From: Schmidtea nova
Taxonomy: Eukaryota
DNA length: 64,000 bases
Direction of reading: 5' to 3'
NCBI GenBank assembly: GCA_044892505.1
Contig: CM097883.1
Span: forward strand, 264,430,001 to 264,494,000
Positions 11 through 44,845 of the stretch are shown piece after piece. Numbering within the stretch: position 1 is the stretch's first letter; each line of letters opens with the position of its first letter. The notes beneath the pieces were generated by a model. It saw nothing but the letters and a program-made list of their open reading frames with translations, ran no database searches and had not been told where the DNA came from. A program made the position numbers and the translations under genes.

Positions 11-826
11 TTGAAAACGAGCGGACAGTTCAGAGAAAGAAGCATAAAGCATCAAATAAAGTGGCTAATAGAACAAGCCAGAACATGGAAAAAGACCTGG
101 AAAAGAACTCGAGACGAACTACGAGAATTCCCAAAGAAGCTGGTGTCAATGAATGAAGCAGAATTGTGGGAAAATGCAGAAAAGCAAGAGATAGAAAACA
201 AAGAATTAAGACGGCAAATTCAATTAAAAACCGAATGGAATCAAAGGAGAATGAAATTTACCAGGAATCAAGAAGCTCGTATCAAATATCTGGAATTTGA
301 AAATAGGCAATATGATCAACAGAAGAATATGGATGATAGAAGTATTGAAGAATTGACAATCGAATTGACTATTGCAAACCGTGAAGTCAACGGATATCGA
401 GGAACAAATACTCATAAAGACATTGTCATTCAACACCAGCGACGGCAGATAGAAGAAACAAAGGCCGAATGTGAGAAAGCGATCCAGCAATCGCAGTATG
501 AGATTGAAATGGCTATCCAAAGTTTGGAAGAAAATCGCCAAAACTATGAAAGAGAGATTGAAAGGTTGAAAAATATGGAAAATACGAGAGAGCTCGAGAT
601 AGAAAAGGAACAGCTGAGTGAAGAACTCGATTATATGACATATTTGCTAGATAAAGAGATAGAAATCTCAAGAACTTTGCGAGAGAGAGTTCAGAGCCTA
701 CAAAATCAACCTCCAATAATTCTATGGCCACTTTATCCAACACCAATACAACCTGTACATTTGGAGCAAGAAAATCCTCAAATCGAAGATGAAGGGTTCG
801 GAGAAATTGAAGAGACGTTTGTATAA
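11..826 (+). CDS. C-terminal part of coiled-coil accessory protein (5' end outside window)
   Basis: Nearly identical to the C-terminal 271 aa of 16957-18504; ends DEGFGEIEETFV. Confidence 0.85.
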   Translation: MKTSGQFRERSIKHQIKWLIEQARTWKKTWKRTRDELREFPKKLVSMNEAELWENAEKQEIENKELRRQIQLKTEWNQRRMKFTRNQEARIKYLEFENRQYDQQKNMDDRSIEELTIELTIANREVNGYRGTNTHKDIVIQHQRRQIEETKAECEKAIQQSQYEIEMAIQSLEENRQNYEREIERLKNMENTRELEIEKEQLSEELDYMTYLLDKEIEISRTLRERVQSLQNQPPIILWPLYPTPIQPVHLEQENPQIEDEGFGEIEETFV

Positions 827-10028: not shown

Positions 10029-13000
10029 ATGGAGGAGAATCAGAAAGTTACCAGTGTAAACTCGGAAGACAATTTATTAGAAGAAGAGCAGAAAATAACC
10101 AGTCCAAACGTAGAAGATAATTTACAGGAAGAAGAAAAAGAAGTAGTAACAATGAAAATGCAACTACAACAGAATATCGAAGGAAAAGTAAATGAAATGA
10201 TAACCGAATTATCAGACGTTGAAATTGAAAGAAATAGAAATGTATATGAATTTTCAGTAAAAGATATGGAGGGAGAAGAAAAGAAGAAGTTTGTGGAGAA
10301 ATATAACCGAAAAAGAAGAGGAAGAAGAAGCAATGATGATACATGTAGCATGGACGAGAAATGGGATGAATCTACGACAATCAAATTAGAAGAAGTGGCA
10401 CAAAGATTGTTAAACATTACCATAGAAGAAATGACGAAAATGAATCAGAAGTCGGAAGAAAAAAGAAAATCAGCGAAGCTCGAAAGATCAAAACAAACGG
10501 AAACGTCAAAGACCGAACGATTAATCAGTAACCTAAGCAAGAGTGCAAGAAATCAATGTGAAACAACAACTGAGTTACTAAAATGGGTTACAAAAATAGT
10601 GCAAATATATCAAACATGAGATTGATAGTGAGAGAAATCGAGAAATGCAGACGTTTATGCCCTTGGTATGCAAAACAATTTGATGACATCATGAGAAAAT
10701 GGAAACAACTGGAACAAACAAACGATGATCCACAGATGAGCAGATTGAAAATTCAGTTTCCGAATCTAGAAGAAATAAAGATGAATGTATCATTAACAAC
10801 AAAGATCAAAGAGATAAAAGAGAGATTACCATTCAACTTACCATTTCACTTGAAATATGATGGATAATCGCTGGATGATGATATAGAAATCGGTGTAACC
10901 CCGATACAAATCGAAACAAGTAATAAATTAACTGTTGATAAAATTGCAGGAAGCGAGTTGACCAGAAAAGCGAGAGGTGAAGATAATCCCGAAACAACGA
11001 TAATTGCAATGATGAAAACTCCAGCTGGACCAACACTTACAATTAACATCGAAGTTAATGGTGTGAAAGTAGACGCGATGATAGATACTGGCGCAAATAT
11101 ATCAGCAATAGATATCGATATGATACCAGAAATGTTATGGTCATGCATCGAGAAAACATCAGTAGACGTAATAACATGCAGCAAAGAATCTGTCAATATC
11201 ATTGGAAAGATATGGACGGACATCGAATACAGAAAAGTAAAAATATCAACTTATTGGACAGTCATAAAACAACTGGGTGCCTCATGCATTATTGGAACAG
11301 ACGTAATACCAAAACTGTTAAAAGGATCTGTAATCGATTTGAATACGATGAAGTTGAAACACCTAATTGAAGAGAATTGCACAAGAGAAACAATGATAGA
11401 ACAATCAAATCAAGAAATGACCAGAAAAGGACAAGTATTTATGTTTCGAGAAAATGCAAATGACGATTGGCTACATCGTATATTAACTACGAGCAGAACA
11501 GTAAATCAGTCAACAACAATATCTGAACAACCTAAGATAGTGGACGATGTAAAAATGGAGCACCGCAAAAAGATGGAATTGATCATTGAGATTACCAAAG
11601 AAATTATGCCAGAATGGTCAAAAAGTAAAAATCTATTTGAAATATTAGGAGGAGTAAGCCTAATGGTTGAGGAATATGCCAAAGGAAATGAAACAACAGA
11701 AGCGATGAATACCATAAAAGAAAGATTACCAATATTATTTACAATTGCCAGTTTTAAAGATGAGATACCATTGTACCACGCAATAAAAAGTGGGAATGAA
11801 CAGAGAATATTTGAAATCATAAAGCTCATGGAAAAGTGCAAGCAACATACCAACACAAAAAACTGGAAAGATCAAACACCCTTGATGATAGCAATTGAAA
11901 AAGGAGGATCCAAGAAACTCATAGCAGAACTGATGAGAACCGGATCAAGTTTTAAAGAAAGAGATGATAAAAATGAAACGGTGTTATCATATGCAGTGCA
12001 AGCGAATAACCATCAAATAATCAAATATATTATGTCAAATGCTACAGAAGAAGATATTGAAGTGCTCAGTTCAGATCCAAATCCATTAGTAAATGCAGTG
12101 AACAAAGATGGCGACGAAACAACAGCAAAAATGATTAAATGGTTACATCCAGTCACGCACGAAGGAGTGATAAATGTCAATGACAGATTTGAAGACAGTG
12201 AAAATATGATAATGAAAAGAGCCATGAAAAGAAAATGGAAAATGTATAAAACGATTAAAGCATTGCTGCAAAGACCTGATTTCAGATTTACAAACAACAA
12301 AAAAGAAAAAGAAAGAATGGGATCTAAAAGACATGAATTATATCAGCAAGTCATCATATGGAAAGAAAATATAAAAGAAAGCAGAATTCACCGAAGTTGG
12401 AACAACGCCAAAGATGAAATAACCAAGAGAGCAAATATAAAAGCCGAAGCAGATGAAATAGCTAAAAGATATGAGGAAATAATAAAATTAATAAATGTCG
12501 AGGACGACATTTTAAACGGAACCTAGGGTGGTTCTGATTATCACAATAACCCTGACAATGAAGATGAAGAGAATGATAACAACAAAACAAAGAAAGATGA
12601 CAATGAAAGTACCAACAGAAACAATGACAAAGACGAGAAAGATGATGGAAAAAGCAACAAAGATGAAAATGGGAACAAAAGTGATGAACCCAAGCAAGAA
12701 ACTTCAAATTATGAGAAACGAACAGCATGTCTACATAAAACTCGAATAAAAGACATAATATTACTGATATTGATGCTGCCAGCATTGAAAGGAACGGAAG
12801 TTGATGACAAGAGAAAACCAGTACAAATATTAATACAAGGATCAGATAATGAAGAAGCATGTTGGAGTAGCGTCAAATTGCAATTTAAAGGAGATAATCC
12901 AGTCAAATGCTAACGAGCAGAAAAAGGAGAAATCCGAATAAATGGATTGAAACGAGAAACAAAATACAAAATCTGTGTTTACAAAAAGAAAGCAGCACAA

Positions 13001-13964: not shown

Positions 13965-15422
13965 ATGAATAAAACTTGGTATAAAGAGCAAAACGAAAAA
14001 ATTGTAAATTATTTTAGAATGCAGACCAAGAATCAGCAGAAACAAGAAGAATTGATCGAACTATATCAGATACTACAGAGACAACGGATAGAACCAACAG
14101 AATTTCAAGAAAGATTTAAATGTAAAGTATGTAGAAATTTATTGATAGAACCCAGACAAACTGAATGTGGATGTCGAATATGCACTAATTGCGTGATGAA
14201 AATAATACGAACTAAACAGAAGCTATGTCCTGAATGTGGTGAAGCAATAATAGATCAATTTGACCAAACCAGACCAGATATCGCAATGAATCGGAATATA
14301 ATGAACGCAGCAACAACCTGTCCAAATAAACCATGTGTATGGAGTGGGCCAATAAAATGGATCGCCAAACACCTTTATAATTGTGATGATACGAAAGCCA
14401 AATGCAAGTGGTGTGAAGAAGAAATTTTGAAGAAAGTCAAAGACAGTCATGAGGAAATGTGTGAACAACGACAGGAAATCTGTGAGTTTTGCAACGAAAC
14501 AGACGCTTGGATAGTGTTAAAAGATGAGCATTGGAATATAGAAGAAGGGCAAATATGTGACGAGTATGAAGGTAATTGTAATCAATGTGGAATGGCAGAA
14601 AACGTGAAGCTAAAAGAACATTGGGAAATATGCGAAAAGAAGCCTACTGCATGTCCACTAAAATTATTCAATTGCAAAGTGAGATTACCAAAAGAGGAAA
14701 TACAAAAGCATGTCGATGAAAATAGTATAAATCATTTGAGAACCGTTGTGGAAGCTATTGGAGCAACCGCACTGGTAATTGGAGAAGCCAACACAGAAAT
14801 AAAATCACACAAAATCATGATACAAGAGATGTTGGATACGAGAGGAAGTTTTGAAAGAATAAGAGAACAAATGATCCAAAAAATGATACTATTAGACCAG
14901 AAAATAGCAGAAATATCAACAACAGAACAAAGATTGGAAAACATATTGCCAACAATGGAAGAACTACCCGTCACACTCTACTATTGGAAAATCACAGAAT
15001 TTACAGAGAAATTGAGACTAGCAAGAGAAGGAGGTCAACGTGTATGGACAAGTCCACCTTGTCACAGTTGGAATCATGGTTACAAGCTTAGATTCAAAGT
15101 ATATCTAACGGGAGACGGACTAGGAGCCGGAACTCATTTATCTGTATATTTTCAAATATGTAAAGGAGATTATGACGATTGGTTAGAATGGCCCTACGAT
15201 TGCGATATAATTATGATGATCGGAACAAAGGAAAACAACGTTCGGGAAGTATTCAGACCAAACTTGAGGAAGGTAGAAGCAGCTTATAGGAAGCCGATCG
15301 AAAACTACAACGTAGCTGTAGGAAACCCACGTTTTATTGCATTACATTATTTAACCATAGAACAATCATTGTATTTGGTAAATAATATCCTGTATCTGAT
15401 TATCGAAGTGAGGAAGCCGTAG
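13965..15422 (+). CDS. TRAF-family protein (RING, TRAF zinc fingers, coiled coil, MATH), intronless
   Basis: RING CKVC..EPRQTECGCRICTNC..CPEC; Cys/His fingers; MATH signature YLTGDGLGAGTHLSVYF..KGDYDDWLEWP. Confidence 0.92.
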   Translation: MNKTWYKEQNEKIVNYFRMQTKNQQKQEELIELYQILQRQRIEPTEFQERFKCKVCRNLLIEPRQTECGCRICTNCVMKIIRTKQKLCPECGEAIIDQFDQTRPDIAMNRNIMNAATTCPNKPCVWSGPIKWIAKHLYNCDDTKAKCKWCEEEILKKVKDSHEEMCEQRQEICEFCNETDAWIVLKDEHWNIEEGQICDEYEGNCNQCGMAENVKLKEHWEICEKKPTACPLKLFNCKVRLPKEEIQKHVDENSINHLRTVVEAIGATALVIGEANTEIKSHKIMIQEMLDTRGSFERIREQMIQKMILLDQKIAEISTTEQRLENILPTMEELPVTLYYWKITEFTEKLRLAREGGQRVWTSPPCHSWNHGYKLRFKVYLTGDGLGAGTHLSVYFQICKGDYDDWLEWPYDCDIIMMIGTKENNVREVFRPNLRKVEAAYRKPIENYNVAVGNPRFIALHYLTIEQSLYLVNNILYLIIEVRKP

Positions 15423-15739: not shown

Positions 15740-16822
15740 ATGTCAAAACCAATTACCTCAGAAATGATTCATTGTCGATTTACACGAACAATATCGAATG
15801 TTCCTAAGGAAAGGAGGTATGGAAAATTCAAAATTATTGATGAAACGTTAAAAAACGAGAACCGAAGATATATAACCTTTTTACAACAAGACCATTTCTA
15901 TGAAAAGCAATACAGAAAATTCGCCAAAGAGGGTTTGTATTTTGCAGGGACAATTGAGAAACCCGATAAAGTAACCTGTGTATTTTGCAGAATCGAAATA
16001 GAACCTTGGAGAATTAACGATGATCCACTAACAGAGCATAGAAAACTTTCACCCACATGCCAGTTTGTGTTAAAGGCATACGAAAAACCAAGAAAACCAG
16101 CAACAATGAACAATGATGAAGAAGAAAAACCCAAAATAGTAACGATAACTTCGACAGGCCCAGCAAAGATACGATTCATAGAAGTTGACCCAAAATATAC
16201 GATTAATGGGAGAACTAACACTTTTGTAGATAAAAAGATGGGTATCAGATTAGCAATAGAAGGTTTTTATGCAATAAATGAATCAACCGCTGAATGTTCA
16301 GAGTGTGGAATACAATATCAATTACCAAAAGAGGAAGGAGAATACCTGAAACACAACGAATATTGTAAATATGGAGAAGAATTATATGAAGACGAAGAGC
16401 CGATCAATTATAAAAACCCAGAGATGCCTGTTAATGAATTATTAGTAGACAAGATATTAGATGAACCACGAACTCAAAAGGCAATGGAACGCACCGGCAA
16501 AAGCGAAATATTTGTGAAAGAAGTTATCAGAGAGAGATTGAGAAGAAATGGAGAAACATTTGGATCAACCCTAGAATTCTTTAAAGCTATAATACAGTTC
16601 ACCAGAAAATCCCAAGTTGTCAACCCAGAATCATGTATCAAGAAAGTTATATTAAATAAACACCCCTGTTCAATCTGTTGGATAAAGAAAGTGGAAGTTA
16701 TTCATTTACCGTGTGGACATCTGTTAGCATGTGAAAATTGTAGCAATAAATTGAGATTGTGCTCAATGTGCAGGAAACCGGTTGACAAACGGATCAAGGG
16801 ATTCCGTTATGCCGATCAATAA
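15740..16822 (+). CDS. Inhibitor-of-apoptosis (IAP)-like protein: BIR, degenerate second BIR, C-terminal RING
   Basis: BIR: GLYF..DKVTCVFC..IEPW..DDPLTEHRKLSPTC; second AIEGFY..CSEC..H..C; RING CSICW..IHLPCGHLLACENC..CSMCR. Confidence 0.92.
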   Translation: MSKPITSEMIHCRFTRTISNVPKERRYGKFKIIDETLKNENRRYITFLQQDHFYEKQYRKFAKEGLYFAGTIEKPDKVTCVFCRIEIEPWRINDDPLTEHRKLSPTCQFVLKAYEKPRKPATMNNDEEEKPKIVTITSTGPAKIRFIEVDPKYTINGRTNTFVDKKMGIRLAIEGFYAINESTAECSECGIQYQLPKEEGEYLKHNEYCKYGEELYEDEEPINYKNPEMPVNELLVDKILDEPRTQKAMERTGKSEIFVKEVIRERLRRNGETFGSTLEFFKAIIQFTRKSQVVNPESCIKKVILNKHPCSICWIKKVEVIHLPCGHLLACENCSNKLRLCSMCRKPVDKRIKGFRYADQ

Positions 16823-16956: not shown

Positions 16957-18504
16957 ATGAATATACAACAATTGATAGGCATCCTAGATCAGGAGATGGC
17001 AAAAAGACAAGAGCAAATTAATCAAATGAAAAGCTATGAACAAAGAATGGAAGCCATTCAAGAGAACGTCATAATAATTGAAAAACGAACCCAAGAGATC
17101 AACAAAATAAAAGAAGAAAACGAGGAACTGCGAAAGATAATAAACGACAAGGCGCATATCGAAGCTGAACTGGACAATTATAAACGAGAGTACAGAGAAA
17201 TGGAGAGAAAACTCGAGCACGAACAACGAAAGTCGGTACCATTGAAAAACCAAGCGAGATTAAGAAAAGAGGAGCTCGAAACCTATAAGAGAGATACCGA
17301 AACAAGGTACGACAACACCATAAGATACTATCAGCAGCAACTCGTAAGTGAAAGAAACAGATATGAAGCCATGATCAAGAAATGGGAAAAGTGTCGAGAT
17401 GAAGCATTTGCTTTGAGAGGACAACCTCAAAAGAAACCTAAAACGAGAACGAGAGAAATCCAGCCTGAAAGCGAACAAGAAAAGATCATTAGAAAAGTTA
17501 AAGCAGAGGCTAGGAAATGGAAACAAGAACACCAAGATTTATTGGAAATGGCTCGACACAGAAAAATGCTACAGGAAGAATTTCTAAGACGGAGAGACGT
17601 TCAAATCGATGCTCTGAAAGAGGAATGTCATTGGTATGCAGACATACGTCATGAGGAAACGGAGAAACTCAGAAAAGAAATATTCCAGTTGAAAACGAGC
17701 GGACAATTCAGAGAACGAAGCATAAGGCATCAAATAAAGTGGCTAAAAGAACAAGCCAGAACATGGAAAAAGACCTGGAAAAGAACTCGAGACGAACTAC
17801 GAGAATTCCCAAAGAAGCTGATGTCAATAAATGAAGCAGAATTGTGGGAAAATGCAGAAAAGCAAGAGATAGAAAACAAAGAATTAAGACGGCAAGTTCA
17901 ATTAAAAACCGAATGGAATCAAAGGAGAATGAAATTTACCAGGAATCAAGAAGCTCGTATCAAATATCTGGAATTTGAAAACAGGCAATATGATCAACAG
18001 AAAAATATGGACGATAGAAGTATTGAAGAACTGACAATCGAATTGACTATTGCGAACCGTAAGGTCAACGGATATCGAGGTACAAATACTCATAAAGACA
18101 TTGTCATTCAACACCAGCGACGGCAGATAGAAGAGACAAAGGCCGAATGTGAAAAAGCGATCCAGCAATCCCAAAAGGAAATCGAAATGGCTATCCAAAG
18201 TTTGGAAGAAAACCGCCAAAACTATGAAAGAGAAATTGAAAGGCTGAAAAATATGGAAAATACGAGAGAGCTCGAGATAGAAAAGGAACAGCTGAGTGAA
18301 GAACTCGATTATATGACATATTTGCTAGATGAAGAGATAGAAATCTCAAGAACTTTGCGAGAAAGAGTTCAGAGCCTACAAAATCAACCTCCAATAATTC
18401 TATGGCCACTATATCCAACACCAATACAACCTGTACATTTGGAGCAAGAAAATCCTCAAATCGAAGATGAAGGGTTCGGAGAAATTGAAGAGACGTTTGT
18501 ATGA
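16957..18504 (+). CDS. 515-aa long coiled-coil protein ending DEGFGE..ETFV
   Basis: Intact ORF, E/K/R/Q-rich heptads; C-terminus homologous to 46428-47489. Confidence 0.85.
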   Translation: MNIQQLIGILDQEMAKRQEQINQMKSYEQRMEAIQENVIIIEKRTQEINKIKEENEELRKIINDKAHIEAELDNYKREYREMERKLEHEQRKSVPLKNQARLRKEELETYKRDTETRYDNTIRYYQQQLVSERNRYEAMIKKWEKCRDEAFALRGQPQKKPKTRTREIQPESEQEKIIRKVKAEARKWKQEHQDLLEMARHRKMLQEEFLRRRDVQIDALKEECHWYADIRHEETEKLRKEIFQLKTSGQFRERSIRHQIKWLKEQARTWKKTWKRTRDELREFPKKLMSINEAELWENAEKQEIENKELRRQVQLKTEWNQRRMKFTRNQEARIKYLEFENRQYDQQKNMDDRSIEELTIELTIANRKVNGYRGTNTHKDIVIQHQRRQIEETKAECEKAIQQSQKEIEMAIQSLEENRQNYEREIERLKNMENTRELEIEKEQLSEELDYMTYLLDEEIEISRTLRERVQSLQNQPPIILWPLYPTPIQPVHLEQENPQIEDEGFGEIEETFV

Positions 18505-23841: not shown

Positions 23842-24184
23842 TGTTGGGCCCGCCAAATCACCTAAAAACACAATAAAAGAGCGAAAACATGAAACAGTAA
23901 GGAAATAATAAAAATAAAAATAACAATAAAAACAAATTAAAAACAAGAATAAAATGACAAATAATATTTGATAAATTTTCAGTAAAAGGAAATTTTGAAA
24001 ATAAACCGGTAAACAACAGCAAAAGGGGGCCTGAAATAAGAAAAGATAGAATTAAATAAAATAATAGTGCAAATAATTAATTAATTACTCGAAAAATCAG
24101 GACCACCCAGCGAGAAACCGGAAAAGGAAACAAAATAATGTTTAGGTTAGAATAAAATAATAAAAATACTTTGATGGACGGTCT

Positions 24185-24230
24185 GATCCTGATTGGTCAA
24201 TCCAACCAGACGGATCAGTATAAATACCGA
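24185..24230 (+). promoter_or_regulatory. Candidate LTR core promoter (inverted CCAAT then TATA)
   Basis: CTGATTGGTCAATCCAA...CAGTATAAATA; a similar CTGATTGGT-containing GC island lies in the A LTR at about 5115-5230. No transcript evidence. Confidence 0.4.
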
Positions 24231-25316
24231 TCCAAAAATCACAACTCAACTGTTATCAAAACTTACAATCAAGACTAAACTTTGATTCTAAGAACTATTT
24301 TTTATTACTTAACCGAACGATTTTTCGAGAACCAGATTTACTTCAAATTCGAGGAAACATTCAATAATACATTCAAGTACGGAACGTAATATTTTATTTT
24401 TATTTTTAATGATGTTAATGTACCTATGATTTTTCTTCAATTATAATTTTATATTTCAAATTTACTTTATTTTTAATGCATATAGTTATACTTCCTAGGC
24501 TGCTTACGCGGCGAGGGAGTCCGAGTCGTCGTTGTGGGGCCTCACGGTCTCACATGGCGGTTCAACCTTTTTATTCTGTTAATTTTAATTTTGTGAACAT
24601 AATCCGAGAAACGGACAAAGATACTAATTTATTACTAACGATTTTCGATTTACACTTAGTTATTTGATAAAGATTTTCATAATGAATTATAAAAGTTTTC
24701 GACGATTTTCGAACTAGAATTAAATTATCGCATATTCGGTTGCACAGAGGGCATAGTGTGGGGCACAGTAGGAAAGGCGGAAAGAGCTACCAGAAGGTAT
24801 GCAGCACCAAATGAAAGTCAGGTAGTAGCCTCCCAAGTACTAGGATTTTAGGGTAAAAATTTGAGGTTCCGGAGCATATGCGAGATGATACGAATGCGAG
24901 AAAATGGTATTCCAATCGATCAAATTTCGAATTTCATTACGGGTCAAAGTGCGACTCGATAAGATTTTCTTAGATAATCCAGACGAAAATACGTCATCAC
25001 ATTCCTGTTAAATAATTTACACGAATGCTAAAAATACTCTTAGACCGATCGCCGTACATGGCGCGGAATTCCCTGATTTATAAACCGATCGCTGTATATA
25101 GCGCGGAGATTTTAACTTTTATTCTTCCTGAACGCTTTAACTAGCGTAAGGCCATGTAATTATAAAAACGTAATCCGACCGTGGTATATCGCGGCGAAGG
25201 TAAATAAAATTAATCTTATTTTAAACTAAATTTTGTGATTACACGCGGTATCAATAAATCTTTCAACAAATTTCCTCCGTTAAATCCTATATTTTATATT
25301 CAATAAAGTAATACAG

Positions 25317-25796
25317 ATGTCGACAGCCGAGATTGAGAACCAATTGACTCAAATGCGAAACTTGGAACAATGGAATGCAGAAAATGGAATGGTCTCTCAA
25401 CTCAAAGAGCTACCTACACCGATATTGCGGATCCTCAATGCCCAAATGTATAAGTGGAGACATGGGTTTGGTCGAAAATGCCCGTTTTCAATATGGGTAG
25501 GAGGAAGTGACCAAGTACTTTACCGCGGAGGACCGAACTGGCCAATTACCCAAAGGCCTTACTCGAACAAATTTGGTCGAATGATCGTGGTAATAAAGGA
25601 CGCAGAAGGACGAGCGAGCCGCATAATTTATTGGGGACATATCCCTCGCCGAGAATTGTGTCGATTGGGCCTGCACGAGTTTCTGCCGCGGAAACCATTC
25701 GGCAAGGAATGCCAGAAAGGGCAACCCTCGTTTTCTTGGGCTCGCCTTCGTCAGATGCCGATAAACAACGAGATGCACAGCCTATTTCGGCGATAA
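25317..25796 (+). CDS. LTR-encoded 159-aa basic protein, unknown function
   Basis: Intact, GC-richer than flanks, ATACAG directly before ATG; repeated at 49812-50291. Confidence 0.7.
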   Translation: MSTAEIENQLTQMRNLEQWNAENGMVSQLKELPTPILRILNAQMYKWRHGFGRKCPFSIWVGGSDQVLYRGGPNWPITQRPYSNKFGRMIVVIKDAEGRASRIIYWGHIPRRELCRLGLHEFLPRKPFGKECQKGQPSFSWARLRQMPINNEMHSLFRR

Positions 25797-25986
25797 AAAT
25801 ATTTTGACAAAAATTTGTTTCTGAGTAAAAATATTAATGTTCATCAGTGGTTTTTGTTTTGAGTTTTCTTGTTTTGTATTATTAAACCGGTCATGTTCTT
25901 AACCTAATAATTATGCATTCAGATTTTAATTTTACACATAATCGAACCCTAAAGTGACAAAATAATTATCGTAAATCAATTCTAGA

Positions 25987-26583
25987 ATGAATATCGATGT
26001 GGCACACAGGGAGTTGGAAAAGATGTGGCGAATCCGGAGAACCCAGGACAAGGAATTGGGTCTCCTCAAAGCACAATTAATCAAAGCCGAGGCACAAGTC
26101 ACATATTTACGCAAAAGCTGGTTTGCTCCGGCTAGGATGAAGGAGCAAATCAGTAAAACCGAACGTGCCCAGCAAACTGCAGCAGATTATAAAATGGAAT
26201 GGGAAGCTACAAAAATAGAGCTCCGAAAGTGCCTCCATTCCATAACGGCCTCGTACATTGAGAAGGAACTGCGAGATCAAATCCGTCCTATTACATATCA
26301 AAAATGGACATCGGAAAAGAAAAGCGTCAACTCGATTGGCACGGACATCGCTGATCTCACCGAAAGCCAAAACGAGCCGGTTCCAGCAACAAATCCATCC
26401 ATTTCAATGGTAAATGCGCACCAGAAACGCAAGCGCATCGGGCAGAAAAGGCGACGGCAAAGAAAGCTGTTTGCCCAACGATTACAGAGCCAAGTAGATG
26501 GCCTGCATCAAATGACCGAAGGGGAATTATTAACGGAAATCTTTCCCCCAGCCGGAGTTTTCACTGAACTAATTAAAGATTGA
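25987..26583 (+). CDS. LTR-encoded 198-aa coiled-coil protein with basic cluster
   Basis: Intact; KRKRIGQKRRRQRK NLS-like stretch; repeated at 50482-51078. Confidence 0.7.
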   Translation: MNIDVAHRELEKMWRIRRTQDKELGLLKAQLIKAEAQVTYLRKSWFAPARMKEQISKTERAQQTAADYKMEWEATKIELRKCLHSITASYIEKELRDQIRPITYQKWTSEKKSVNSIGTDIADLTESQNEPVPATNPSISMVNAHQKRKRIGQKRRRQRKLFAQRLQSQVDGLHQMTEGELLTEIFPPAGVFTELIKD

Positions 26584-27058
26584 ATAAATTTTCGTGTTAT
26601 CTTAAAATTGTTATTGTTCATTTAAATTGATTTAGTTAACTTGACAAATAATTAGATAATTGTAGAATAAAAATATAAACTCATCTCACAAAATACCTAA
26701 TAAAGGCAAATAAATAATTAAGCGAGCATTTTGTTAAAACACTTCATGCAGAATAAGCAATGTTAAAGATAAATTTTCTGAAAGATTATTGCGGAATACC
26801 TAAGCGGATGATTAAAGCATAAGTCCTTCTAACGGCAGCAATGAACCCGTAAACATAAATGGGGAGTAGTACTAGCAATAGTGCTCACCTGCCCATCATT
26901 GTTTAACCACCCTGCGCATCACCAACTTGATTATATAGGGAAATAATCAAGGGCGCTCGAGTGTATAATTGCAATTTTATGCATGATCATGGATGAGGGA
27001 TCCCTAGTCATTGTTAGAGCATTTTTCATCTAACCCCTCCATGAACCTAGCATAAATT

Positions 27059-29342: not shown

Positions 29343-31120
29343 TTGAGAAAAGGAGCAAAGAGCGTTGCAATAAAGCCAACAGAGAAGAAGAAAGCCGGCA
29401 GAGATAACAACAAAAACCCACAAGGGAATAAGGCAAGGAAGATAATAAGAGATAAAGCGATTATCGAAAACGATAAATTGTCAGTAGTAAGCAACAGCTC
29501 AAGTAACAAAGAAAACCAAGCGGAACCCAGAGAGAGCCAAACAAGTGAAATAGAAGTAGACGAAACTAATAACGATAATATAGAAGAAATAGAAAACGAA
29601 GTAGAAGTAGAAATCAACGAGAGTGATAACGATAGTATAATATCGAATAACGAAGTAATAAAGGAAACAGAAAGCGATCCAAGCTCGAGTGAAACAGAAG
29701 AAGAACATAACAACGAACTAGAAACAAGAGGAAACGAAAGTAAAATAACTCAAGACAGCGGAATTGAAATGAGTGAACCAAGAGAAGAAATAAAGGATAA
29801 ATTTGCAGGAGAACCGTTTAACGGAGATGCGAGTAAATTAGAAATCTTTTTAAAAGAATTTGGCATATTCGTGGAGGTATGCAAATGGAAAGCTGAAACA
29901 ACAGCAAGCAGAATACAGTTATATTTGAAAGATAGTGCATTGGACCTATATTTGGAAGCAAAAATAGTACCAATCCACCTGCAGACTGGCCAGCGATAAA
30001 GGACTTTTTCCAACAAACATTTGGAATAAATAAAGTGCTAAGCGAAGCATTCATAGAATTTTCAATGAGAAAACAAAAGATGAATGAATCTAACGCGGTA
30101 TACGCGAGCGAATTGAAAAAATTAGCAAAATCGGTATTCAAGGATGGGAGCCCAATAAACGAGGAACTAATGGCAGCCATCTTCATAGGAGGATTAAGAA
30201 GACCTGACATAAGAGCGCAAGTTGGATGCCAAGGATGCAAAACCATAGATCAAGCGTTAGAAACAGCTAACCGATTCGAACTGCATATGATAGGAAGTGA
30301 AGGCAGAATTTATTTAGCCATAAACACGGCGCAAACCGAACCAGAAGTAAATCTCAACAATCACATTCCAAATTCGCAACAATTAAATCGACCACCTCCT
30401 CAACGAAGGAACGAAGGAAATAAAGTGCAGAACTTTGGAAACCAAAACAATTACAACCCTCAAGGACAAACAAAACAGTGTAAAACATGTGGAAAGTTGG
30501 GACACTGGCAGCAAGAATGCTATCAAAATTTGAATTGCGGGAAATGCGGAGTTAAAGGACATTCGGAGAGTAGATGTTCAACGATAACCTGTTTTAATTG
30601 CGGACAACCTGGTCACTATTCAAGAAATTGCGGACAAAAAAGTAACCAGCGAGGAAATTGGCAGAACAATGGGAATCGACCAAATTACGGAAATCAAACA
30701 AACATCGGAAACCGACAAGATTATGGAAACCAACAAGTCAATAATAACAATAATCAGAACAAAACTACCACCAAAGAAATACATTTGATGCAAGAAGTCC
30801 AAAGGTTGACGGAACTTATAAATAATACGACGAGAGGAAATCCGCAAACCAATCAACAGCAAATTAGCATGATGAGAAAAATAGAAAGCGAAAACGAACG
30901 GTTGAATCGAGAAAGTCAGGCACGACACGCTCAGGAATGGGCAAGGATACAAAGAGAAGACGAACAAAAACAGCAAGAAAGAGAGCGACAACCTCTAAGA
31001 ATAAACATGCTAAGAGCAACAAAGCAAACAGATAACCACGAGAAGGAAACCACATCAGAAATAAACCCGAATCCAACCAACAACGAAAGTCGAAAAGAAA
31101 TAGTACAAAAAGATGAGTAA
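29343..31120 (+). pseudogene. gag: gag (acidic N-terminus, capsid-like region, three CCHC zinc knuckles), frameshifted near 29975
   Basis: PFNGDASKLEIFL..F capsid-start motif; CKTCGKLGHWQQEC, CGKCGVKGHSESRC, CFNCGQPGHYSRNC at 30479-30631. Confidence 0.88.
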
Positions 31121-31144
31121 GTAGAAAAAGAAGTAGAAAAGGAA

Positions 31145-34100
31145 GTGGAAACTGAGATAAACCAGGAAGAGAGAAGAAAAATTTGGATGATGGTATTCAT
31201 GCCCAACAACCATGTGTTTAGATTTCAATATAACGTAAAAGAAGAAGTGAGAGTATTATTCAACAAAGCAAACCAGATGGTTCCAGGAGTAACGAAACTG
31301 CCCAGAGAAGCGTTCTTACAAATAGGAGATGCACCATCAGTAAAATTGAAATTAACGGATATATGGGAAAACGTGGGAGTAACAGAGACAAAAAGAAATG
31401 TGATGAGAATCAAAGAAATAGAACCAGAAGAAATTCCACCACCAGTGCGGCGCGAAACCCGAATCAGTCGAATATTTAAAGGAAAAATGATACGAAGACG
31501 TTTGAAAGAAATAGACGAGTTGGAGAAGAAAATGAGAAAAGTCGAAGTAATAGAGGACAAGAGTGAACAAACCCCAGAAATTACCAAAACCGAAACAAAA
31601 TCAACGGAGAATATACAAGGGGAAACGAACCAAATAGCACATATTAATATGTTAAGAAATACCACCAGAGAATTTTCCGATGAGGAAGAAGATAGTGATA
31701 TCAGTAGCCTAGCAGGAGACATATTAAACGAACCCGAAGACGAAAACAAAGAGATAAAAGTAATAAAGACCTCAGAACCTACACAGATAAAAGTGGATGA
31801 AATCCAGAAATTACTAGATAACTCGCTAGAGGTAATATATAACGAAGAGTTCATGGACAAGAAACAATATCGGAAATTCATGAAAGCATTATTACAAATG
31901 AACTATAAAGAATGGTTACAAGACCGGGAAGTAGACATGTTAAATCGATACGTAGGGAAATTAATAGAGAACCACTCCTCAATTACACCATCTCAATAAT
32001 AATAAATACATCTACACCAAGAATCTGGATCAAAACTCCATTTACGGACGATATCTACAGATGGGTAGAGGATAGACTAGGGAGCTCACATAAAAACAAA
32101 TTCATCTATTCGCAGAATAGACTCGTAAAGAAAAGAACGCACCTAGTAGAAACAGGTATATGGCCAGGAGAAGTAACCCTGTTATCAATATGCGATGAAA
32201 AGGAAGAAGAGAACCTACAAGAAGTTGCAAAGGAAGCAAACACGTGTTTCGAAAGGAGAATAAAACCACGGTTAGAATACGAGAAAGGACGAATCTTACG
32301 AAAGAATCTAAATTCCCTGATAGAACAAATCATACCACAAGTCAAAAAACATAGAAAAGAGTTAATGAGAAGCGAATATGAGAAACTGAAACGATGTATT
32401 GAGTGCATACGTGACACAAGTCACACGAGATGGTCACAGATCTCACACGACAAATTAATCGCAAAAATGGGGAAAACAATGTTCAGACAAGGGAAAATAA
32501 CAGATCTAAAAATTTCAGTAGAATTGCCTAATGAAGACACCAAAGAAATTGAAGTGGTAGCGGATTGCACCATTAAAGAATTAATAAATGTCATCAACGA
32601 GACACTAGTGCAAAGAGAACCAGAAGACGAATGGGAAGACGACATAATCATAAAATATAACGAACATGTATTATGGGATCACGATGAGAGACGACTATAT
32701 AAAATCGGTATATGGGATAATCACCAAACCATCCACGTTATCAGAATGGACGATACACCCAGAGAAACTGCTAAAGATGAGAAAAGAGAACGGGAACGAC
32801 AGAAAGAAGTTGTACACAAACTACAACAAATAGTAGATATCTATCGAAATTGGCGAATTTGGCCAGAGTGGGAAAGCGTATTAGAAGAACTCAATCTCAA
32901 CAGACGATTACGAACACCCGTAGAAAAACAATGGAACGAGCAAGGAAAATGTTGGGAACCAAAAGAAGGGGAATATGAAGAAGAATATGAAAGAGGAATT
33001 GAAGATGACTGCGAACCAGAGATAGGAAGAGTTTGCATGGTAACAAGGAAAGCTACGCCAATAGACCTAGATGGACCAGAAACCGCGGCTATATGGTTAG
33101 AAAGGGAAAAGCAAAAAACGGAAGAATTTGTCGAAATATTGAAAACTAATGCGCACGGTAAGAGAAAATTAATAAAGGGTCTCGCAGATTTTTTCGTGGT
33201 AAATGGAGAGGATATAACATGCTTGCGTAAAGTAGCAAAAGCAATAGCGGAATATAAAAGAGTTAACGAGTGGTGCCCGGAACAACTAAACCACGTCATT
33301 AGGAAATGGAGAAATCAAGAATTCTCGCAAGAAATTCCACAGAAAGTACATTTAAGAATAATATATCCAAACAAGGATAAGGAAGAGTTTTGGGTAGGAA
33401 TAGCAGAAAAAATTCGAGATATTAAAAAGAAATTGAGATACGAACCACCATTCCATTTACAACACCAAGGACGATCATTAGATAACAGTTTGGAAATTGG
33501 AATAACGCCAGCACAACTAGATCTCATGAATACCTTGACAGTAGAAGCAATAGCGGGTCAACCATTGAAAAGTAAAGAAGAAAACCATAAACCACACGGA
33601 AGTATAAGTACGCCGAGCCCGATGAAATCAGTACTAACGCCAGGGACAAGTTCAAGACGATCTGAGACAACACCCAGAGGGAATAGAGAAATGACTCCAC
33701 CACAACCATACGACGTGGACGAAATTTTAACGGATAGCGACGATATGATAGAAGAGCTAACCGAATTAACAAAGGAAAAAGACGACAACATTTTCGAAAG
33801 AATACAAGAACTACCTACGACAATACAAGTAACCAACACCGGAGAAACAGAAGTCGAAGAAGAGATAATAATAGAAGAAATAAACGATTTGACAGAAGAC
33901 GAAACGAGAGGAGCGAATGTTGAAAATGTACAATTAACACAAGAAATGGAAAGATGGTTAGAAGAAAGAGCTAACGAACCAAGAGATGTCACGGAAGAAA
34001 CAGGACGGGCAACAAGGTTTGTGGAAACAGGTACAGGAATGGATAAACGACCTCGAGGTAGACCCAAGACAGATCCAGCAACTGTAGTTATAAGAAATAA

Positions 34101-34698
34101 AGATGAAAAGAGACAAGATCAATGGGAATTATGCTTAAGGAAACTAAATAAAATTGCGGAGATAAAAGAAAAAGAGACAACACCAATATGTCAAGGGGAG
34201 GAATGGATATCGAAAACAATACTGGAAATATTGGCAATAATTGATCCGGAATTGAGAAAATACTGGCGGATAACTGAGATAAGCGAAAAGGCGAAGTCAC
34301 TACACAGCGCAATCGCACCCATCTTACCGGAATTCATAAAAGAAAAGACGAAATCAAATCATTTAGACTGGCAAGGAACCACTACGTTAATAAAGAAACT
34401 GACAGAAGGAGCGGAAACAGATAACAAATACGTAATAGCCATTGCATATACGATCTACAATCTGTTGACACTAAGTAGAGGTCGACCAAAACCCACTGCA
34501 TTAGAGAGACATATAAAAAATACCGCAAAGATTATAGCTAGAGAAATAGAACCTTACGTCATTAACAAAGGAGGATGGGAAACATTTATAAAAACTAACC
34601 AGAAGAAAACGCAAGCGAAGAATATGAAAAAGAAATTCGAAAAAATATTGGAAGAGTTAGAAAAAGAACAAGCAGGAACAGGAAACGCGAAGTCATCA
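31145..34698 (+). pseudogene. Gag-Env intervening polyprotein segment: several Ubl-like domains, helical domain, Bcl-2-like domain
   Basis: In frame with gag across TAA 31118; frameshift near 31970; segment 33110-33560 is homologous to family A ORF1; YVINKGGWETF motif. Confidence 0.6.
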
Positions 34699-36720
34699 AT
34701 GAATTTGAGTTCTATAATAATGATGATGTTGATATGGATGATTAGCACCGATAGCGCAACAGCATTCGAAGTGTTTGATTGCGACCAAATGAAGTTAGGA
34801 GAAAAGTATTCATTGAGAGGTACGGAGCAATGCAAAGATGCAACTCCAGTAGAGTTGCAAAAGATTAAAAAGGAACAATGGTACCACGTGTATCAAGAAG
34901 CAGAACTCATAAAGACAATGGTGAATGAATGTAAGGTGAAGAAGACGAGATTCGCATTCTACTGCGGGAGAGGACATTATTCAGCATTTGTCATGCCAGG
35001 AACGGAAAGAGAACCAATCGTGTTACAAGGAGAAGACTGCGAAGCATTGTTTAAACATGGAGAAGTAACAACAAGAGACAAAATCAAGATAAAAGGAAAG
35101 CCAGGAATGATGCTGCAACAGACCTACTATGTAGCAGGACGGATTACGGGAGGAGAAGGATATTGTCAAGGAGAAACCTACCCGATATTCGGAGTACTTG
35201 CAACCAACTTAGTGGTGATGGATACGTATATAGTCGAACTAAAAAGCTACGAGGTATTCTTCGAACCAACAACGGGAGAAATGAAAACGTTATCCATGTG
35301 TAAAATCGACAGGAGCATGTGTCAAACGGGAATGTCAACATTAGTATACAAACCAAAGGTGAACGAATGTCAATTACAACTGCTACAAGGAGCAAAGTTA
35401 GACGAAATTCAAGGAAAAACGTTCCAGGAAGAAGACGATGACGACAAAGCTAGAGCAAAGCATCTCAAGGAAGCTTTGGAGAATAAAAGACAATTGAAAC
35501 CAGATCATAGAGAAAAACGGATAGAGATGAGAGCCACACCAACAGTGTTGATAACCACAAATCAGGATGTGGGAATGAGATTCATAAAAGGGAAAGCAAC
35601 CCTTTAGTGTAGTACAACGGTATACGAAACGAATTATCCAGGAATATATGTGTCAAAACAAGAAGTGCCGAATGCGAAACCCAAAATCGACACAATGGAT
35701 ATCAAACTACACTTGTATGTGAATAATAAAATGGATTTCCTATTCCATAGAGGACAAGCCTCATTACAAAAAGTGTACTACGATCTGATAAACAATGATT
35801 GTATACTGAATCGAGAAATATTAAAGACAAAGTTGGCCGTAGCGAATACGAATCCAGATAGCGCGATGCCATTATTACCACTGAAAGAAGGACATTTCGG
35901 AAGAGTGGTTGGAGAAGCAATGTATGTATACATTTGTGAAAAGACACACGCGTCGCTAGCAGCAACAACGCAGTTGAAACCTGGAACCTGTACAAATGAG
36001 TTAGAAATCGATTACAAAGGAAAAGTACGATACGTTCAACCGGTGACGAGAATCATCAATCCACCAGGGTTTGAACCAAATCCATTCAACTGTAGTAATG
36101 CGTACGGACCGCTTTATCAGAAACCAGATGGTAAATGGGTTATGTTCCCAGGAAGAGCCGAAGTGATAGCACCAAGAGAATTCGAGCTAATGCAGTTGTC
36201 AAAAGATAGGCAATTCAGCGACGTAGATGTCTCAAACAACGGAATATATAGTCCAAAGGATTTAGAAGCAGCAAGGCAGAATATATTATTCCCGGCGAGA
36301 AGAGAAGCATTACTGTCAAATATCGTAACGATAACGGGAGGAACGGATTATCGAGAAGGACCGAATTATGAACTGTTGTTGTCACCAGCACATTTCAAGA
36401 AAGCCACAGAAAATATGATGAAAGCAATGTGGGGAAGATTCCTGATATTTGGACAAATGATGGCTGGAATACTGGGGGTTATATTAATAATACAAATCGT
36501 CAGAGTGATAATAACGCAAATGTTAGCGTGTTTCGATATCTACAAGAGAGAAAAGAAAGTGAATTGGAAAATGGTAGTAGGGTTTTTACCATTCCTTGCG
36601 AAAACGATGGTGTTGCACGGACACTCAAAGGACATACATCGAATAAAGAGATTGTTGAAGATACTCGCAAAAATGAAGGGAACAGATGAAGAAGTAGGAC
36701 GAAAATTTAAAAAGATAATG
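34699..36720 (+). pseudogene. env: Envelope glycoprotein, chuvirus/gB-like class III fusion type, one premature TAG at 35605
   Basis: Signal peptide then VFDC..YSL..C..C..FYCGRGHYS; later C..L..NP..G....GEAMYVYIC, CTNELEI..PVTRII, GIYSPKDL..ILFP; TM at about 36440-36515. Confidence 0.75.
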
Positions 36721-37059
36721 AATGACGAACAAGCAAGACAACAGCTCAAGAGAGAAAGAAAAGGTTTATGGGAGAGGATGAAAGGATATAAAACCCAAAA
36801 TGATTCGAGTGACGACGACGATGACGATGACGACAATAAGGGAGGACAAGTGTATAAGAACCAAGCACCCCAATACATTGAAAAGAATCCAGTCGACGCA
36901 TGGAAATGTTACGCACCTCCACCAACCATGTATCAAGAACCACTACAAGGAGGAAGAACGACCACGATGCAAATGATGCCAATGACAAATGTATACCCCA
37001 TGATACCGGAAGATTATAAAATGAGAAGATGTAGAAGTGTAGATCCACAAGGAGACACA

Positions 37060-40000
37060 CATACAATCGCCGTAATGTCATCAAATACAGGTCCAGTACT
37101 AACCACGACAATAGAAATTAACGGAAGAGAAATCGAAGCAATGATCGACACTGGAGCAAATATTTCCGCCATCGACATCAAATGGATACCACAAGAACAA
37201 AGACTGGAAATAGAAAGGACAAACGTCCATGTAATTGCATGTAGCAAAGAAATCGTAGAAGTAGCAGGGAGATGGTGGGTAAAAATACGCCACTTAAATA
37301 CAGAAATCGATACGTACGTAGCAGTCATACCAGCATTAAGCGTACCTTGCATTATTGGAACGGATTTGATGCCAGCTTTATTTAAAGAAATTGTAATCGA
37401 TCTCGGAACAATGAGACTAAAAGATCGTACCGGACAAATATGCGCAATAGAAGCCAAAGTGACAAGTTCAAAGCAAATGATAATACCCGCAAGAAAGGAA
37501 AAAATATGTTATGTAAAAATAGATCCGACAATCCAAGGGGATATGATTTTCGAACCAAGTAAAAGATTCGAGAAAAGAAAAGCGTTGCCAATGGCAAAAG
37601 GATTAGTCAACATAAATGATAATGGAGAAATTCCAATAAAAGTAGTAAATTTCGACGAAGAAGATAAGATAATCTACGAAAACGAAAGATTAGGTAAATT
37701 AACCCCAATGATGGATATCGAACTACCAATAGAAGGAGCAGAGAAAGATAAAGAACCAACCTGGAATATTGATAGTGAATTATTAAATGAGGACCAAAAG
37801 AAACAGTTAGAAAAACTGCTGATGGAGTATAAGGATATATTTGCAGCATCCGATTTAGATCTAGGAACCTGTGATGTCACGTTACATACGATACCATTAA
37901 CAGACGAAACACCAATTGCATTAAGGCCGTACAAACTAGCGGAAGCACAGAAAGCAGTAGCTGAAGCAGAAGTGAAGAAAATGTTGGATGCAGAAGTAAT
38001 CGAACCAAGTTGTTCACCCTGGCAATTTCCAGTGGTAATGGTAAAGAAGAAAGACGGAACACAGAGATTTTGCATCGACTATCGAAGATTGAATACGGTA
38101 ACAAAACGAAACACTTACCCATTACCGGACATCAACGAAATGCTATTAACATTACAAGAGGCAGCATATTTTACATCGCTAGATCTGAAAAGCGGATATT
38201 GGCAAATAAAAATGAAGGAAGAAGACAAAGAGAAAACTGCCTTTACCATCGGTAGAGACCTATATCAATTTAGAAAGATGCCATTTGGACTAACAAACGC
38301 ACCAGCATCATTTCAGAGATGCATGAATTTCGTCACCCATGGAATAAAGCAGTGTATGGTCTACATAGACGATTTATTAATTTATTCTAGCACGTTTGAA
38401 CAACACATACAGGATATTCGAGATGTATTCGTTAGACTGAGACAATGGAAGTTAAAACTCAAGCCATCCAAATGTGATTGGGCTAAAGAGAAAGTAACAT
38501 TTTTAGGACATATAGTGTCAGCAAAAGGAAAAGAACCGGATCCTAGAAATATCGACAAAGTAAAAGAATGCCCAGTACCAAAAACAATAACCCAAATACA
38601 AGAATTTCTCGGACTATGTGGATACTATAGAAAGTTTATAAAAGATTACGCCGGAATCGCTAAGCCTATACAGGAGCTGGTAAAGAAAGATGTATCATTT
38701 ATATGGGGAGACGAACAGCAGACAGCTTTCGAGACATTAAGAGATAAACTGATAACCGCACCCATATTGGTACACCCAGACTCCAAGAAGCCATTCCTAC
38801 TTGCAACAGACGCAAGCGGATATGCAGCAGGAGCAGTATTAGGACAATACGATGATGAAGGAAAGGAACGGGTAATCGGATATTATAGCCGGACGTTCAA
38901 AAAGCATGAGAAAAATTACTCAGTAACGGAACGAGAAGCATTAGCAATTATATTAGCGATTAAACATTTTAAATACCTATTATGGGGACACATCATCTGC
39001 ATAACAACAGATCACCAACCGCTTGTATGGCTAGGACAGCACAAAGAAACATCCAGTAGATTAATGTGATGGGCAATGCAGTTACAGGAGTACTCACCGG
39101 ACATAAAATTTAAATCAGGACGAGCGAATGCGAATGCAGACTGTATGTCAAGACTGACATTTCCGGAATTAACCGATCCTGATGTACAACGAATCTGTGT
39201 ATTAATAGCAGAAGATTTAGATTTTAGTGAGTTAAAGAAAGATCAACAGGAAGACAAAGAATTAGGACAGATCATAGAGTTCCTAACATCTCGAAACATG
39301 GAGGTATTCAAGGATAATAAGGAACTAAAGGAACATATAGGAAAATATCAACATCGCTATATATTAAACAAAGGATGGTTGTTGATACAAGACGGTGAAA
39401 AGAGATTGATGTGTTTACCGGAAAACAGAAGGAAAGAGATAATGATCCAGTACCATGATGGGAAATTAGGAGGTCATATGTCCGAGAAAAAGACAAAAAA
39501 TCGTATGAGACAAAAATATTATTGGCGAACAATGGAAGAAGATATTAAAGAATGGATTAAAAATTGTCTAACTTGCGCAACCAGAAAGGATAGTGGGAAG
39601 AAATGGAAGAACCCGCTACAACCAATGCCGATACCAGCAGAGCCAATGACAACTATAGCAATGGACGTAATAGGACCATTACCAGAAAGTCTAAACGGAA
39701 ATATCTATATATTGGTGATAACAGATTATCTGACAAAATTCCCGGAAGCATTTGCCATGCAAGACCAAAAAGCAAAAACCGTAGCAAAAATTTTAGTGGA
39801 AGAAATATGTTGCAGATACGGAACTCCAAAACAAATACTCACAGACCAAGGAACTAACTTTATGAGTGAGTTATTAGACGAGGTGACAAACTATTTTAGA
39901 ATAGCAAAATTGAGAACTTCACCATATCACCCGCAAACGAATGGACAAACGGAGCGATTCAATGGTACATTGATTAGAATGCTATCCAATTACGTCAGCA

Positions 40001-42720: not shown

Positions 42721-44845
42721 AATTGACACCCAAAGAACAGGTTATAAATCAACCATAAAACCATTCTTCAAACCAGAGTTACTATTATTAACAGTGATTT
42801 TAACGTTAATTAACCCAAGTCAAGGAATGACATGTGAAGAACGGGCAATAATACAAATAAAAAACGCAAAAGGAATCGAACGAGTATGTTGGTCGAAAAA
42901 GGACAAAATCACGGAACAAAATAGTCCGATGGATTGCAGAATCTCAGAACACGAGCAAGAGATCATAGAGATCGATGACTTAGATCTAAATACCTGGTAC
43001 AGAATATGCACCGTTAGAAAACAAAAGCATCCAAGATCACACAACACAATCGCATGTGCAAACTACCAAACACCTAAAGCAACCATGACAGTACAACAGT
43101 CACCCGAAGGAGATTACATCGTCGGAAAATGTGGAAGAACAGAGACACAGGGAACCGAAAACAAAAAACCCCACGCAATAGATAAGCAAACAACACCAAC
43201 TATACGAATTACAATAGAGAGGCCCGAAGCAAGAGTTGCCACAAACGAAACCGAAAGAGTGTCTTACCAAATGGAAGTATTATGTTTAGCACTCATACTA
43301 ATAATAATAAAACGACTAGAGGAAGGGATGGAAATTGAAACTATGACAATAACGGAAGTAGAAGATACACAGAATACTAACATAAAATGTTGGGCAAGGA
43401 ATAACGAGGAAGTCGGCGTAAACGAAATAAGGAAAAGTCGAAAACCAACAACAAATAAAGTAATGAGAGTATCCGAAGTAAAAGCAGACAAGATGTACAA
43501 ACTATGCCTACTAGAAAAAGAGATAAACAAGAAAGGTACCACAAAATGTAAAACATTCCAACCTGGAGAAGTAATAAAGTTCAGAAGGAGAACGAGGAAG
43601 AGAAATAAACAAATCAAGCAGAAAGTAAACATAACATTAGAAATATAAGAGATAGAACCAAATGTGAAAGGAGTATGCTGGAGGAAGTACGAAAAAGAAA
43701 CAAATAAAAGAATGACACCACAATGTCGAACAAGCACAGGAGCAACGACGGTACAAATAAAAGGTTTAGAAAGTAAACAAACTTACGAAATATGTCTGGT
43801 AAAGAAAAGTGATCAGATAACGATAAACGATCTAGAGTGCGGGATATATACAACTTCATCCGGAACAGGAACAAAAACGCTAACACGGAAAAATAAAAGA
43901 AGACAACGAAACAGAGGAAAACCGAAGTACACCACTACCCTTAAAAACGACAAACAACCAACAAACCAAGAAGTTAAGATAAAACCCGAGAAGAAGACAT
44001 CAGCAACTCTGACATTATGGAAAATAGAGAATAAAACATTAGAAATATGTTGGATAATAGTCCAGAAACATATAAGAAGACAATCAAGAGAGTGCAGAAA
44101 AACAAATAAAGAAATCAAGATCGAAAAACTACAATTTAATAGCGAATACGAAGTATGTGCAATAGAAAAAACGGACGCACTCGGAAACCAACAAGAAAGA
44201 TGCGTAACCTACTATACACCAGCAAACGCGACATCAAAAGGAGTAGCAAGGAAACTCGAATTCAAGGAACTAAGCCAAACGAATAAACAAATGGACGCAG
44301 AAAAAATAATAACCGACCCTCAAGCAAAATGGACACCTGAAGAAGTTATCAAAGAAGTCAAAAGAAAGCAGGAGGAACGAGAACAACTAAGGAGAAAACT
44401 AAAAGGACAATATGGAATAATGTTCAACAAAAGCGAACCTATACCAACAGACGAGAATAAACAAATTAAAGAATTAATTGGCTTAGGAATATTAACAGCG
44501 ACCATACCAGTAATAATCGCATTATCAGCTATATGGATACGCAAGATAAATCCCAGAAAATCAACAACCCAATGGCTAAATATAGATAATACAAGCCATG
44601 GAGTAGAAATACTAGAAGAAAAAACACTAGAAGAACCAAATGAGAAAGAAGCAAAAAGCGGAAAACTACGAATAAACAACGAAGACAAGGAAATAAAAGA
44701 GATTAAAGGCGAAGAGAAAAAATATGAAAGTCGAACCAGAAGCCTACCGCAGAGTTCAAAATGGTTGGGTCTAACAATAATATTGAGTTGGGTAATAAAT
44801 AGATTAAACAACGAAGCGGAACCAGATTCAACGAATGAGCCATAG
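42680..44845 (+). pseudogene. Membrane protein with signal peptide, about four FN3-like repeats and TM; in-frame TAA at 43646
   Basis: LLLLTVILTLINPSQG; repeats such as DDLDLNTWYRICTV, KGLESKQTYEICLV, EKLQFNSEYEVCAI; TM LIGLGILTATIPVIIALSAIWI. Confidence 0.6.

Follow-up and report, generated by a model that had tools for sequence, protein, structure and literature searches.

A conserved C-terminal tail on accessory proteins of giant Burro-type retroelements in Schmidtea nova: a probable class I PDZ ligand joined to a candidate beta-TrCP mimic

The consensus of class I PDZ ligands is [S/T]-x-[V/I/L] at the extreme C-terminus of a protein, viral examples being HPV E6 and HTLV-1 Tax, and extended PDZ ligands with an upstream aromatic residue also exist. 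For beta-TrCP, serine-free DDG and EDG degrons have been described (PMC10487276, bioRxiv 2021.01.31.429078) besides the canonical DpSGxxpS. The accessible text of one review lists WEE1 SWEEEGFGSS and CDC25B TEEDDGFVDI as degrons and gives DSG, DDG, EEG, SSG and TSG as natural triplets, DEG not being among them (PMC10317156). Burro, or GYPSM1, denotes giant planarian Ty3-gypsy retroelements of about 28 kb, which the accessible part of a review proposes to meddle with host apoptosis and ubiquitin systems, the target being left unnamed there (PMC6431247). Burro RNA was reported in planarian tissues upon failure of PIWI silencing (PMC8532177), and planarian beta-catenins bind beta-TrCP (PMC5643146).

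We analyzed a window of 64,000 nucleotides of the Schmidtea nova genome, the whole stretch being meant by this word throughout. It holds members of two retroelement families, A and B, which carry a coiled-coil accessory gene; its protein ends in the tail under study. The features concerned are as follows.
788-826, forward strand: tail DEGFGEIEETFV and stop, copy A1 of the coiled-coil gene (ORF open at the window start; no TRAF or IAP upstream, flank L177)
11009-12526, forward strand: A2 protease fused directly to ankyrin repeats, without env, RT or integrase
13965-15422, forward strand: TRAF gene of A2
15740-16822, forward strand: BIR-RING (IAP) gene of A2
16957-18504, forward strand: 515-aa ORF for the coiled-coil accessory protein of A2, without a Pfam family or transmembrane segment
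18319-18339, forward strand: YLLDEEI block of A2, more conserved than any other block of the coiled-coil family
18466-18483, forward strand: D-E-G-F-G-E of A2, candidate phospho-independent beta-TrCP motif
18490-18504, forward strand: E-T-F-V-stop of A2, class I PDZ-ligand consensus
23842-27052, forward strand: 5' LTR of B, TG...CA, 13 differences from the 3' LTR over 3212 aligned bases
30065-44845, forward strand: polyprotein region of B in several ORFs (CCHC gag, fusion glycoprotein PF24664, protease, RT, RNase H, integrase, ankyrin, FN3-like membrane part)
44938-46314, forward strand: TRAF gene of B
46428-47489, forward strand: 353-aa ORF for the coiled-coil accessory protein of B, flanked by the TRAF gene and a gene for a short membrane protein
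47451-47468, forward strand: D-E-G-F-H-E of B
47475-47489, forward strand: E-T-L-V-stop of B
48337-51547, forward strand: 3' LTR of B

On their architecture, we assign these elements to the Burro-type giant LTR retroelements. Element B spans 23842-51547 (27.7 kb) with near-identical 3.2-kb LTRs and gave Pfam matches to RVP, RVT_1, RT_RNaseH and rve, with PF24664 upstream of RVP (E 1e-18 and 5e-44) in a reading frame that is broken in this copy. Pfam further detected TRAF and ankyrin cargo in both A and B and BIR in A, and matches to Bcl-2 were found below the cut-off in two other families, G and H, only, with none detected in B. LTRs, CCHC gag, an in-frame fusion glycoprotein before the protease, PR-RT-RH-IN, ankyrin, TRAF and BIR are common to these elements and Burro in its accessible description, and family F resembles Burro1 in having a polyprotein of about 5000 aa with an internal TRAF (PMC6431247). 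Unlike Burro as described there, B has TRAF and coiled-coil genes as separate ORFs behind the polyprotein, and family A is without env, RT and integrase. The protease-ankyrin fusion without env, RT or integrase recurred in 12 of 12 further family A copies (L241-L252; 10 kb each), and TRAF and IAP were missing in four of the 12, with the coiled-coil gene still present. Judged by gene content, family A is a non-autonomous relative of B that has kept the coiled-coil gene despite the loss of env, RT, integrase and, in part, TRAF and IAP. It made up 88 among the first 100 tail matches listed (counted by eye), and its copy number is probably well over a thousand.

Some side observations concern the elements themselves. 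B is inserted in an A-type repeat, and its polyprotein is split into several ORFs despite only 13 differences between the LTRs in 3212 bases. Its LTR (25317-26583 and 49812-51078 of the window) contains two ORFs of 159 and 198 aa with homologs in other families, including H. An RNase H-integrase ORF at 62625-63998 on the reverse strand, beyond a truncated third A copy, apparently belongs to a separate retroelement. In G and H, an ORF of 468-482 aa behind the polyprotein (L124:2189-3637, L125:1447-2853) looks like a DEDD exonuclease by eye, and Pfam gave nothing for it. Elsewhere, at C2:405-455 Mb, a dense TRAF-MATH cluster away from element copies is apparently an expanded host gene family.

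Translation of 788-826 and 18466-18504 (copies A1 and A2) gave DEGFGEIEETFV and that of 47451-47489 (element B) gave DEGFHEPNETLV, each followed by a stop codon and each closing a long ORF, so the positions proposed by a first-pass annotation of this DNA were correct; DEGF words in the six frames of the window occurred in these three tails only. Copies A1 and A2 lie within one 93%-identical repeat, and their tails therefore count as one observation. The annotation had further claimed that strongly diverged A and B proteins keep D-E-G-F-x-E and a terminal E-T-x-V. This was borne out: the tails are 8/12 identical, and the coiled-coil proteins share 31% identity over 282 aa (E 7e-19). Since A and B are homologous, the match between their tails is inherited, and a YLLDEEI-S-T block is conserved even better (10/12). 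The TRAF gene precedes the coiled-coil gene in A2 and B and directly adjoins it in B, C, D, E and I. By hydropathy only, the coiled-coil proteins have no transmembrane segment. The ESM Atlas returned only generic coiled-coil look-alikes with low recognition, and word-index protein searches found no homolog of B or of alignment A1, some being found by a full HMMER scan.

We asked of the genome as a whole how far the tail is held, the annotation having named restriction to the window copies as the finding that would speak against it. A degenerate tail pattern matched the genome 2242 times, whereas its reversed control had 0 matches. For a sample blind to the tail, loci were picked by the YLLDEEI pattern (first 30 of 604 matches); the tail was reached in 26 of 30, and the four others were dropped owing to a stop, frameshift or recombination, one of them carrying the motif behind its stop. 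In the resulting 29 copies (26 tail-blind loci and the three window copies), E-10, G-9, F-8, E-6 and V0 were invariant (29/29), D-11 was retained in 27 and E-3 in 28, position -2 was T (23) or S (6) with no other residue, and position -1 was free (L/I/D/F). The spacing of the acidic motif to the PDZ end was constant in all 29. Both the genome-wide matches and the conservation among these copies contradict a restriction to the window. Among seven family representatives, pN was 0.044 at the eight motif codons, 0.525 at the four free codons and 0.393 in the linker, with pS at 0.72-0.79 (0.72 in the motif). In alignment A1, invariant columns made up 7/13 at the end vs 13/97 elsewhere (Fisher p 0.002, post hoc).

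Eleven loci picked by TRAF were read, seven of family D, two of family F and two without a coiled-coil gene of this kind, and all seven of family D ended in DEGFHEPEET[D/E]V. Divergent queries added 40 loci, 27 with a readable anchor, and the tail was intact in 20 of the 27, the others having single changes, stops or frameshifts. Decayed old copies have degraded tails (L204-L207, L221, L223). One tail, at L203, is without the motif. The copies nearest to it are old and for the most part disrupted by stops or frameshifts; no young motif-less family was found among them. Among the top-scoring copies, the A tails were identical in 30/30 and DEGF was present in 28/30 B tails, but these counts were left out of the selection evidence because the query contained the tail. 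Because A and B served to define the motif positions, they are not independent tests, and the families share ancestry. With these limits, sequence comparison indicates that the tail is a 12-residue protein motif kept by strong selection, beyond chance and shared descent.

The terminal part of the tail agrees with the class I PDZ consensus in 29 of 29 tail-bearing copies and is found again on other proteins. Families F, G and H, which were found by TRAF or envelope alone, end their polyproteins in ETLV or ETFV: GPQETLV or a close variant in 8/8 family F copies read through, and ETFV in 10 of 13 copies of G and H (one early stop, two without a listed ORF there). Ahead of the tail, hydropathy predicts a transmembrane helix in G and H, and inspection by eye suggests one in F. 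A BLAST comparison of these polyprotein ends with the coiled-coil proteins showed no likeness (best E 0.05), and no coiled-coil gene was found in the flanks read of F, G and H. RT identity to B is 47-48% for G and H and 87% for F, in a tree without E, I and J, for which the fetched stretches had too little RT; F and B also share a short AT-rich stretch after the stop. Of 43 element ORFs surveyed, eight had E-[ST]-x-V at the end, each from a different listed family, where composition would predict about 5e-4 per ORF; the coiled-coil gene of family I, which lay outside this survey, ends in ESLV. The host genome gave 77 PDZ matches with PF00595. As a separate observation, in families with the coiled-coil gene the polyprotein ends are hydrophobic (IMMV, VMVI, VMIV, VVVV; L186, L092, L190, L197) and not E-T-x-V, possibly representing another PDZ class or an export signal.

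The annotation had proposed aligning the C-termini of all genomic copies and of relatives; within the genome both halves were conserved as described above, and outside it they behaved differently. A full HMMER scan with alignment A1 found nine proteins, three without the tail region and six with it, and the two most divergent matched this genome at 26-43% only and therefore come from elsewhere. P0124 ends in ETIV, P0128 in ETYV and P0130 in ETWV, whereas the P0123 protein continues past its ETIV, P0125 breaks off at ETI, and the P0122 gene model is repeated and contains ETV twice. The acidic motif, as [D/N]EGFGE, was present in four of the six tailed homologs (D in three, N for D in one) and lost in two, P0128 (NERCGG..ETYV) and P0130 (SGGFAF..ETWV). 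Because E-T-x-V is mostly kept and the acidic motif is lost in 2/6, the PDZ end is, on this comparison, the more deeply conserved half. The YLLDEEI block (18319-18339 and 47340-47360 in the window) was retained even in outside homologs without the acidic motif, and may be a further binding site.

The acidic front of the tail contains no serines and thus departs from canonical DpSGxxpS. It takes the form acid-acid-G-hydrophobic-x-acid, D-E-G-F-x-E being present in 27/29 copies, and the pattern [DE][DES]G..[DES] had two matches in 8334 residues of window element proteins, both in these tails. D-E-G is absent from the F, G and H tails. In the accessible part of the review, the IC50 at beta-TrCP is 43.6 uM for DEGFFE-NH2, 3.18 uM for Suc-EGFFE and 1.24 uM for DpSGIFE, so that DEGFFE, the peptide matching this motif, is about 35-fold weaker than its phospho counterpart (PMC10317156). 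The host has one beta-TrCP D-domain locus with F-box and WD40 exons, and its WD40 is about 80-86% identical to animal beta-TrCPs (exon searched). These exons keep SGLRDN, RGIACL and LVRCIRF, which would map to Arg285, Arg431 and Arg474 of the basic pocket of beta-TrCP; the last-blade exon was not found in the 30 kb read. LIR, FFAT, TRAF-binding and KEAP1 patterns, compared by eye, fit one or two families at most.

The same region is poor in lysine. The last 41-72 residues are lysine-free in 6/6 family proteins, this being the longest such run in each, and no lysine occurs in the 30-61 residues upstream of the motif in proteins of 10-14% lysine (shuffle p up to 0.0006 each, families not independent). 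The gap was noticed after the fact and is shorter outside, with 28 residues in P0130 and 13 in one P0122 repeat. The absence of lysines near the motif suggests a decoy or adaptor, roles that have been ascribed to rotavirus NSP1 and HIV-1 Vpu.

The original reading of the tail as a beta-TrCP mimic plus a PDZ ligand, with polarity scaffolds as candidate partners, fared unequally in its two halves. A class I PDZ ligand is well supported and very probable because position -2 is S or T only, position -1 is free, the carriers, which include unrelated, putatively cytoplasmic tails, differ, and outside homologs mostly retain the end. A beta-TrCP mimic is plausible, with the balance tipped slightly in its favor: it fits the non-phosphorylated degrons and DEGFFE, yet it was lost in 2/6 outside homologs and the affinity of the matching peptide is weak.

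The main rival is that the whole tail forms one extended PDZ ligand, in which an aromatic side chain at -8 and an acidic one at -6 touch the protein next to the PDZ groove and determine which partner is bound, any resemblance to a degron being incidental. W-I-D-Y-E-E-T-F-V of G matches F-G-E-I-E-E-T-F-V of A in kind at -8, -6 and -5 although it has no D-E-G. In H, position -8 is W, and in family F, position -7 is F. P0130 retains G-F at -9/-8 with its acids lost, and the fixed spacing of the two halves would also follow. Against it, D-11, E-10 and G-9 are conserved across families at only 30-50% identity; a fixed Gly flanked by acids is the signature of beta-TrCP, and among the window element residues the corresponding pattern is confined to the two tails. 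We regard a single extended ligand as possible but unlikely. Should beta-TrCP indeed be engaged, the acidic motif could instead be a true constitutive degron that keeps the element protein short-lived, the PDZ end only placing it, as the CDC25A/B non-phosphorylated degrons do lead to degradation (PMC10487276); the lack of lysine upstream of the motif in otherwise lysine-rich proteins makes this improbable.

Binding to a protein of the element itself (TRAF, capsid or envelope tail), or a role in trafficking, in place of host ligases and scaffolds, would agree with the position of the gene immediately downstream of TRAF in five families (B, C, D, E and I) and with its retention in the non-autonomous family A. 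Yet the four of 12 A copies without TRAF and IAP keep the gene too, a Pfam scan of 35 ORFs found no PDZ or WD40 domain, and the S/T rule at -2 is PDZ-like, so that we give this reading very little credence. Least credible is a match due to shared ancestry only or to a DNA or RNA signal overlapping the stop codon. A and B are homologous, and in several families, F among them, the stop is followed by an AT-rich word resembling TGTAAAT, but the amino acids are held although synonymous change in the motif is nearly saturated, and different codons are used where S takes the place of T; a nucleic-acid signal is thereby ruled out, and this explanation is largely refuted.

We lean toward two host-mimicking handles, PDZ and beta-TrCP, on a coiled-coil accessory protein. 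E-[T/S]-x-V would serve as a ligand for class I PDZ domains, whereas the degron pocket of beta-TrCP would accept D-E-G-F-x-E without phosphorylation. A soluble coiled-coil oligomer would most probably display the tail and dock on PDZ scaffolds, avidity through oligomerization offsetting the weak single-site affinity for beta-TrCP. As a decoy or adaptor, the protein might stabilize beta-TrCP substrates or bring the ligase to PDZ scaffolds, and the TRAF, IAP and ankyrin genes may work toward the same end, the survival or signaling state of the expressing cell. A joint reading goes further: every Burro family would need one E-T-x-V tail, placed on unrelated proteins, the coiled-coil version would act as an adaptor between SCF-beta-TrCP and PDZ scaffolds or would draw the ligase away from beta-catenin by titration, and a transposon would steer host polarity or Wnt as tumor viruses do. 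This we consider distinctly doubtful. The tail offers two testable host targets and a minimal peptide. If the two-handle reading is true, viral short-motif mimicry extends to a retroelement filling an animal genome, and the tail is a natural phospho-independent beta-TrCP mimic with the same pattern as a designed peptide inhibitor.

We found no earlier report of the tail in the literature on Burro, retrotransposon PDZ motifs and viral TrCP mimicry, as covered mostly by titles and abstracts and with most subscription papers outside coverage. As in HPV E6 and HTLV-1 Tax, a terminal E-[T/S]-x-V stands on an accessory or membrane protein; unlike them, it belongs here to an endogenous invertebrate retroelement and is found on three apparently unrelated carrier proteins. 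The accessible description of Burro names an 'Smc' motif and no C-terminal motif, PDZ ligand or degron mimic (PMC6431247). The acid-acid-Gly-Phe-x-acid pattern resembles CDC25B DDGFVD, WEE1 EEGFGS, MST2 EDG and the synthetic DEGFFE in the accessible texts (PMC10317156, bioRxiv 2021.01.31.429078), and A's EDEGFGE is close to WEE1's EEEGFGS, but CDC25B, WEE1, MST2 and DEGFFE are host substrates or designed inhibitors, unlike the element tail. Closer in kind are rotavirus NSP1 and HIV-1 Vpu, viral accessory proteins that, as far as their accessible descriptions go, carry a short degron mimic (C-terminal in NSP1) and act as beta-TrCP pseudosubstrate or adaptor (PMC5051689, PMC10487276). Their motifs are of the DSGxxS type with serines, whereas the element motif has acids only, is joined to a probable PDZ ligand and is carried by a coiled-coil protein. 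Both Burro elements and motif mimicry by viruses were already known; ETLV/ETFV on the unrelated, apparently membrane-anchored polyproteins of three families is new here.
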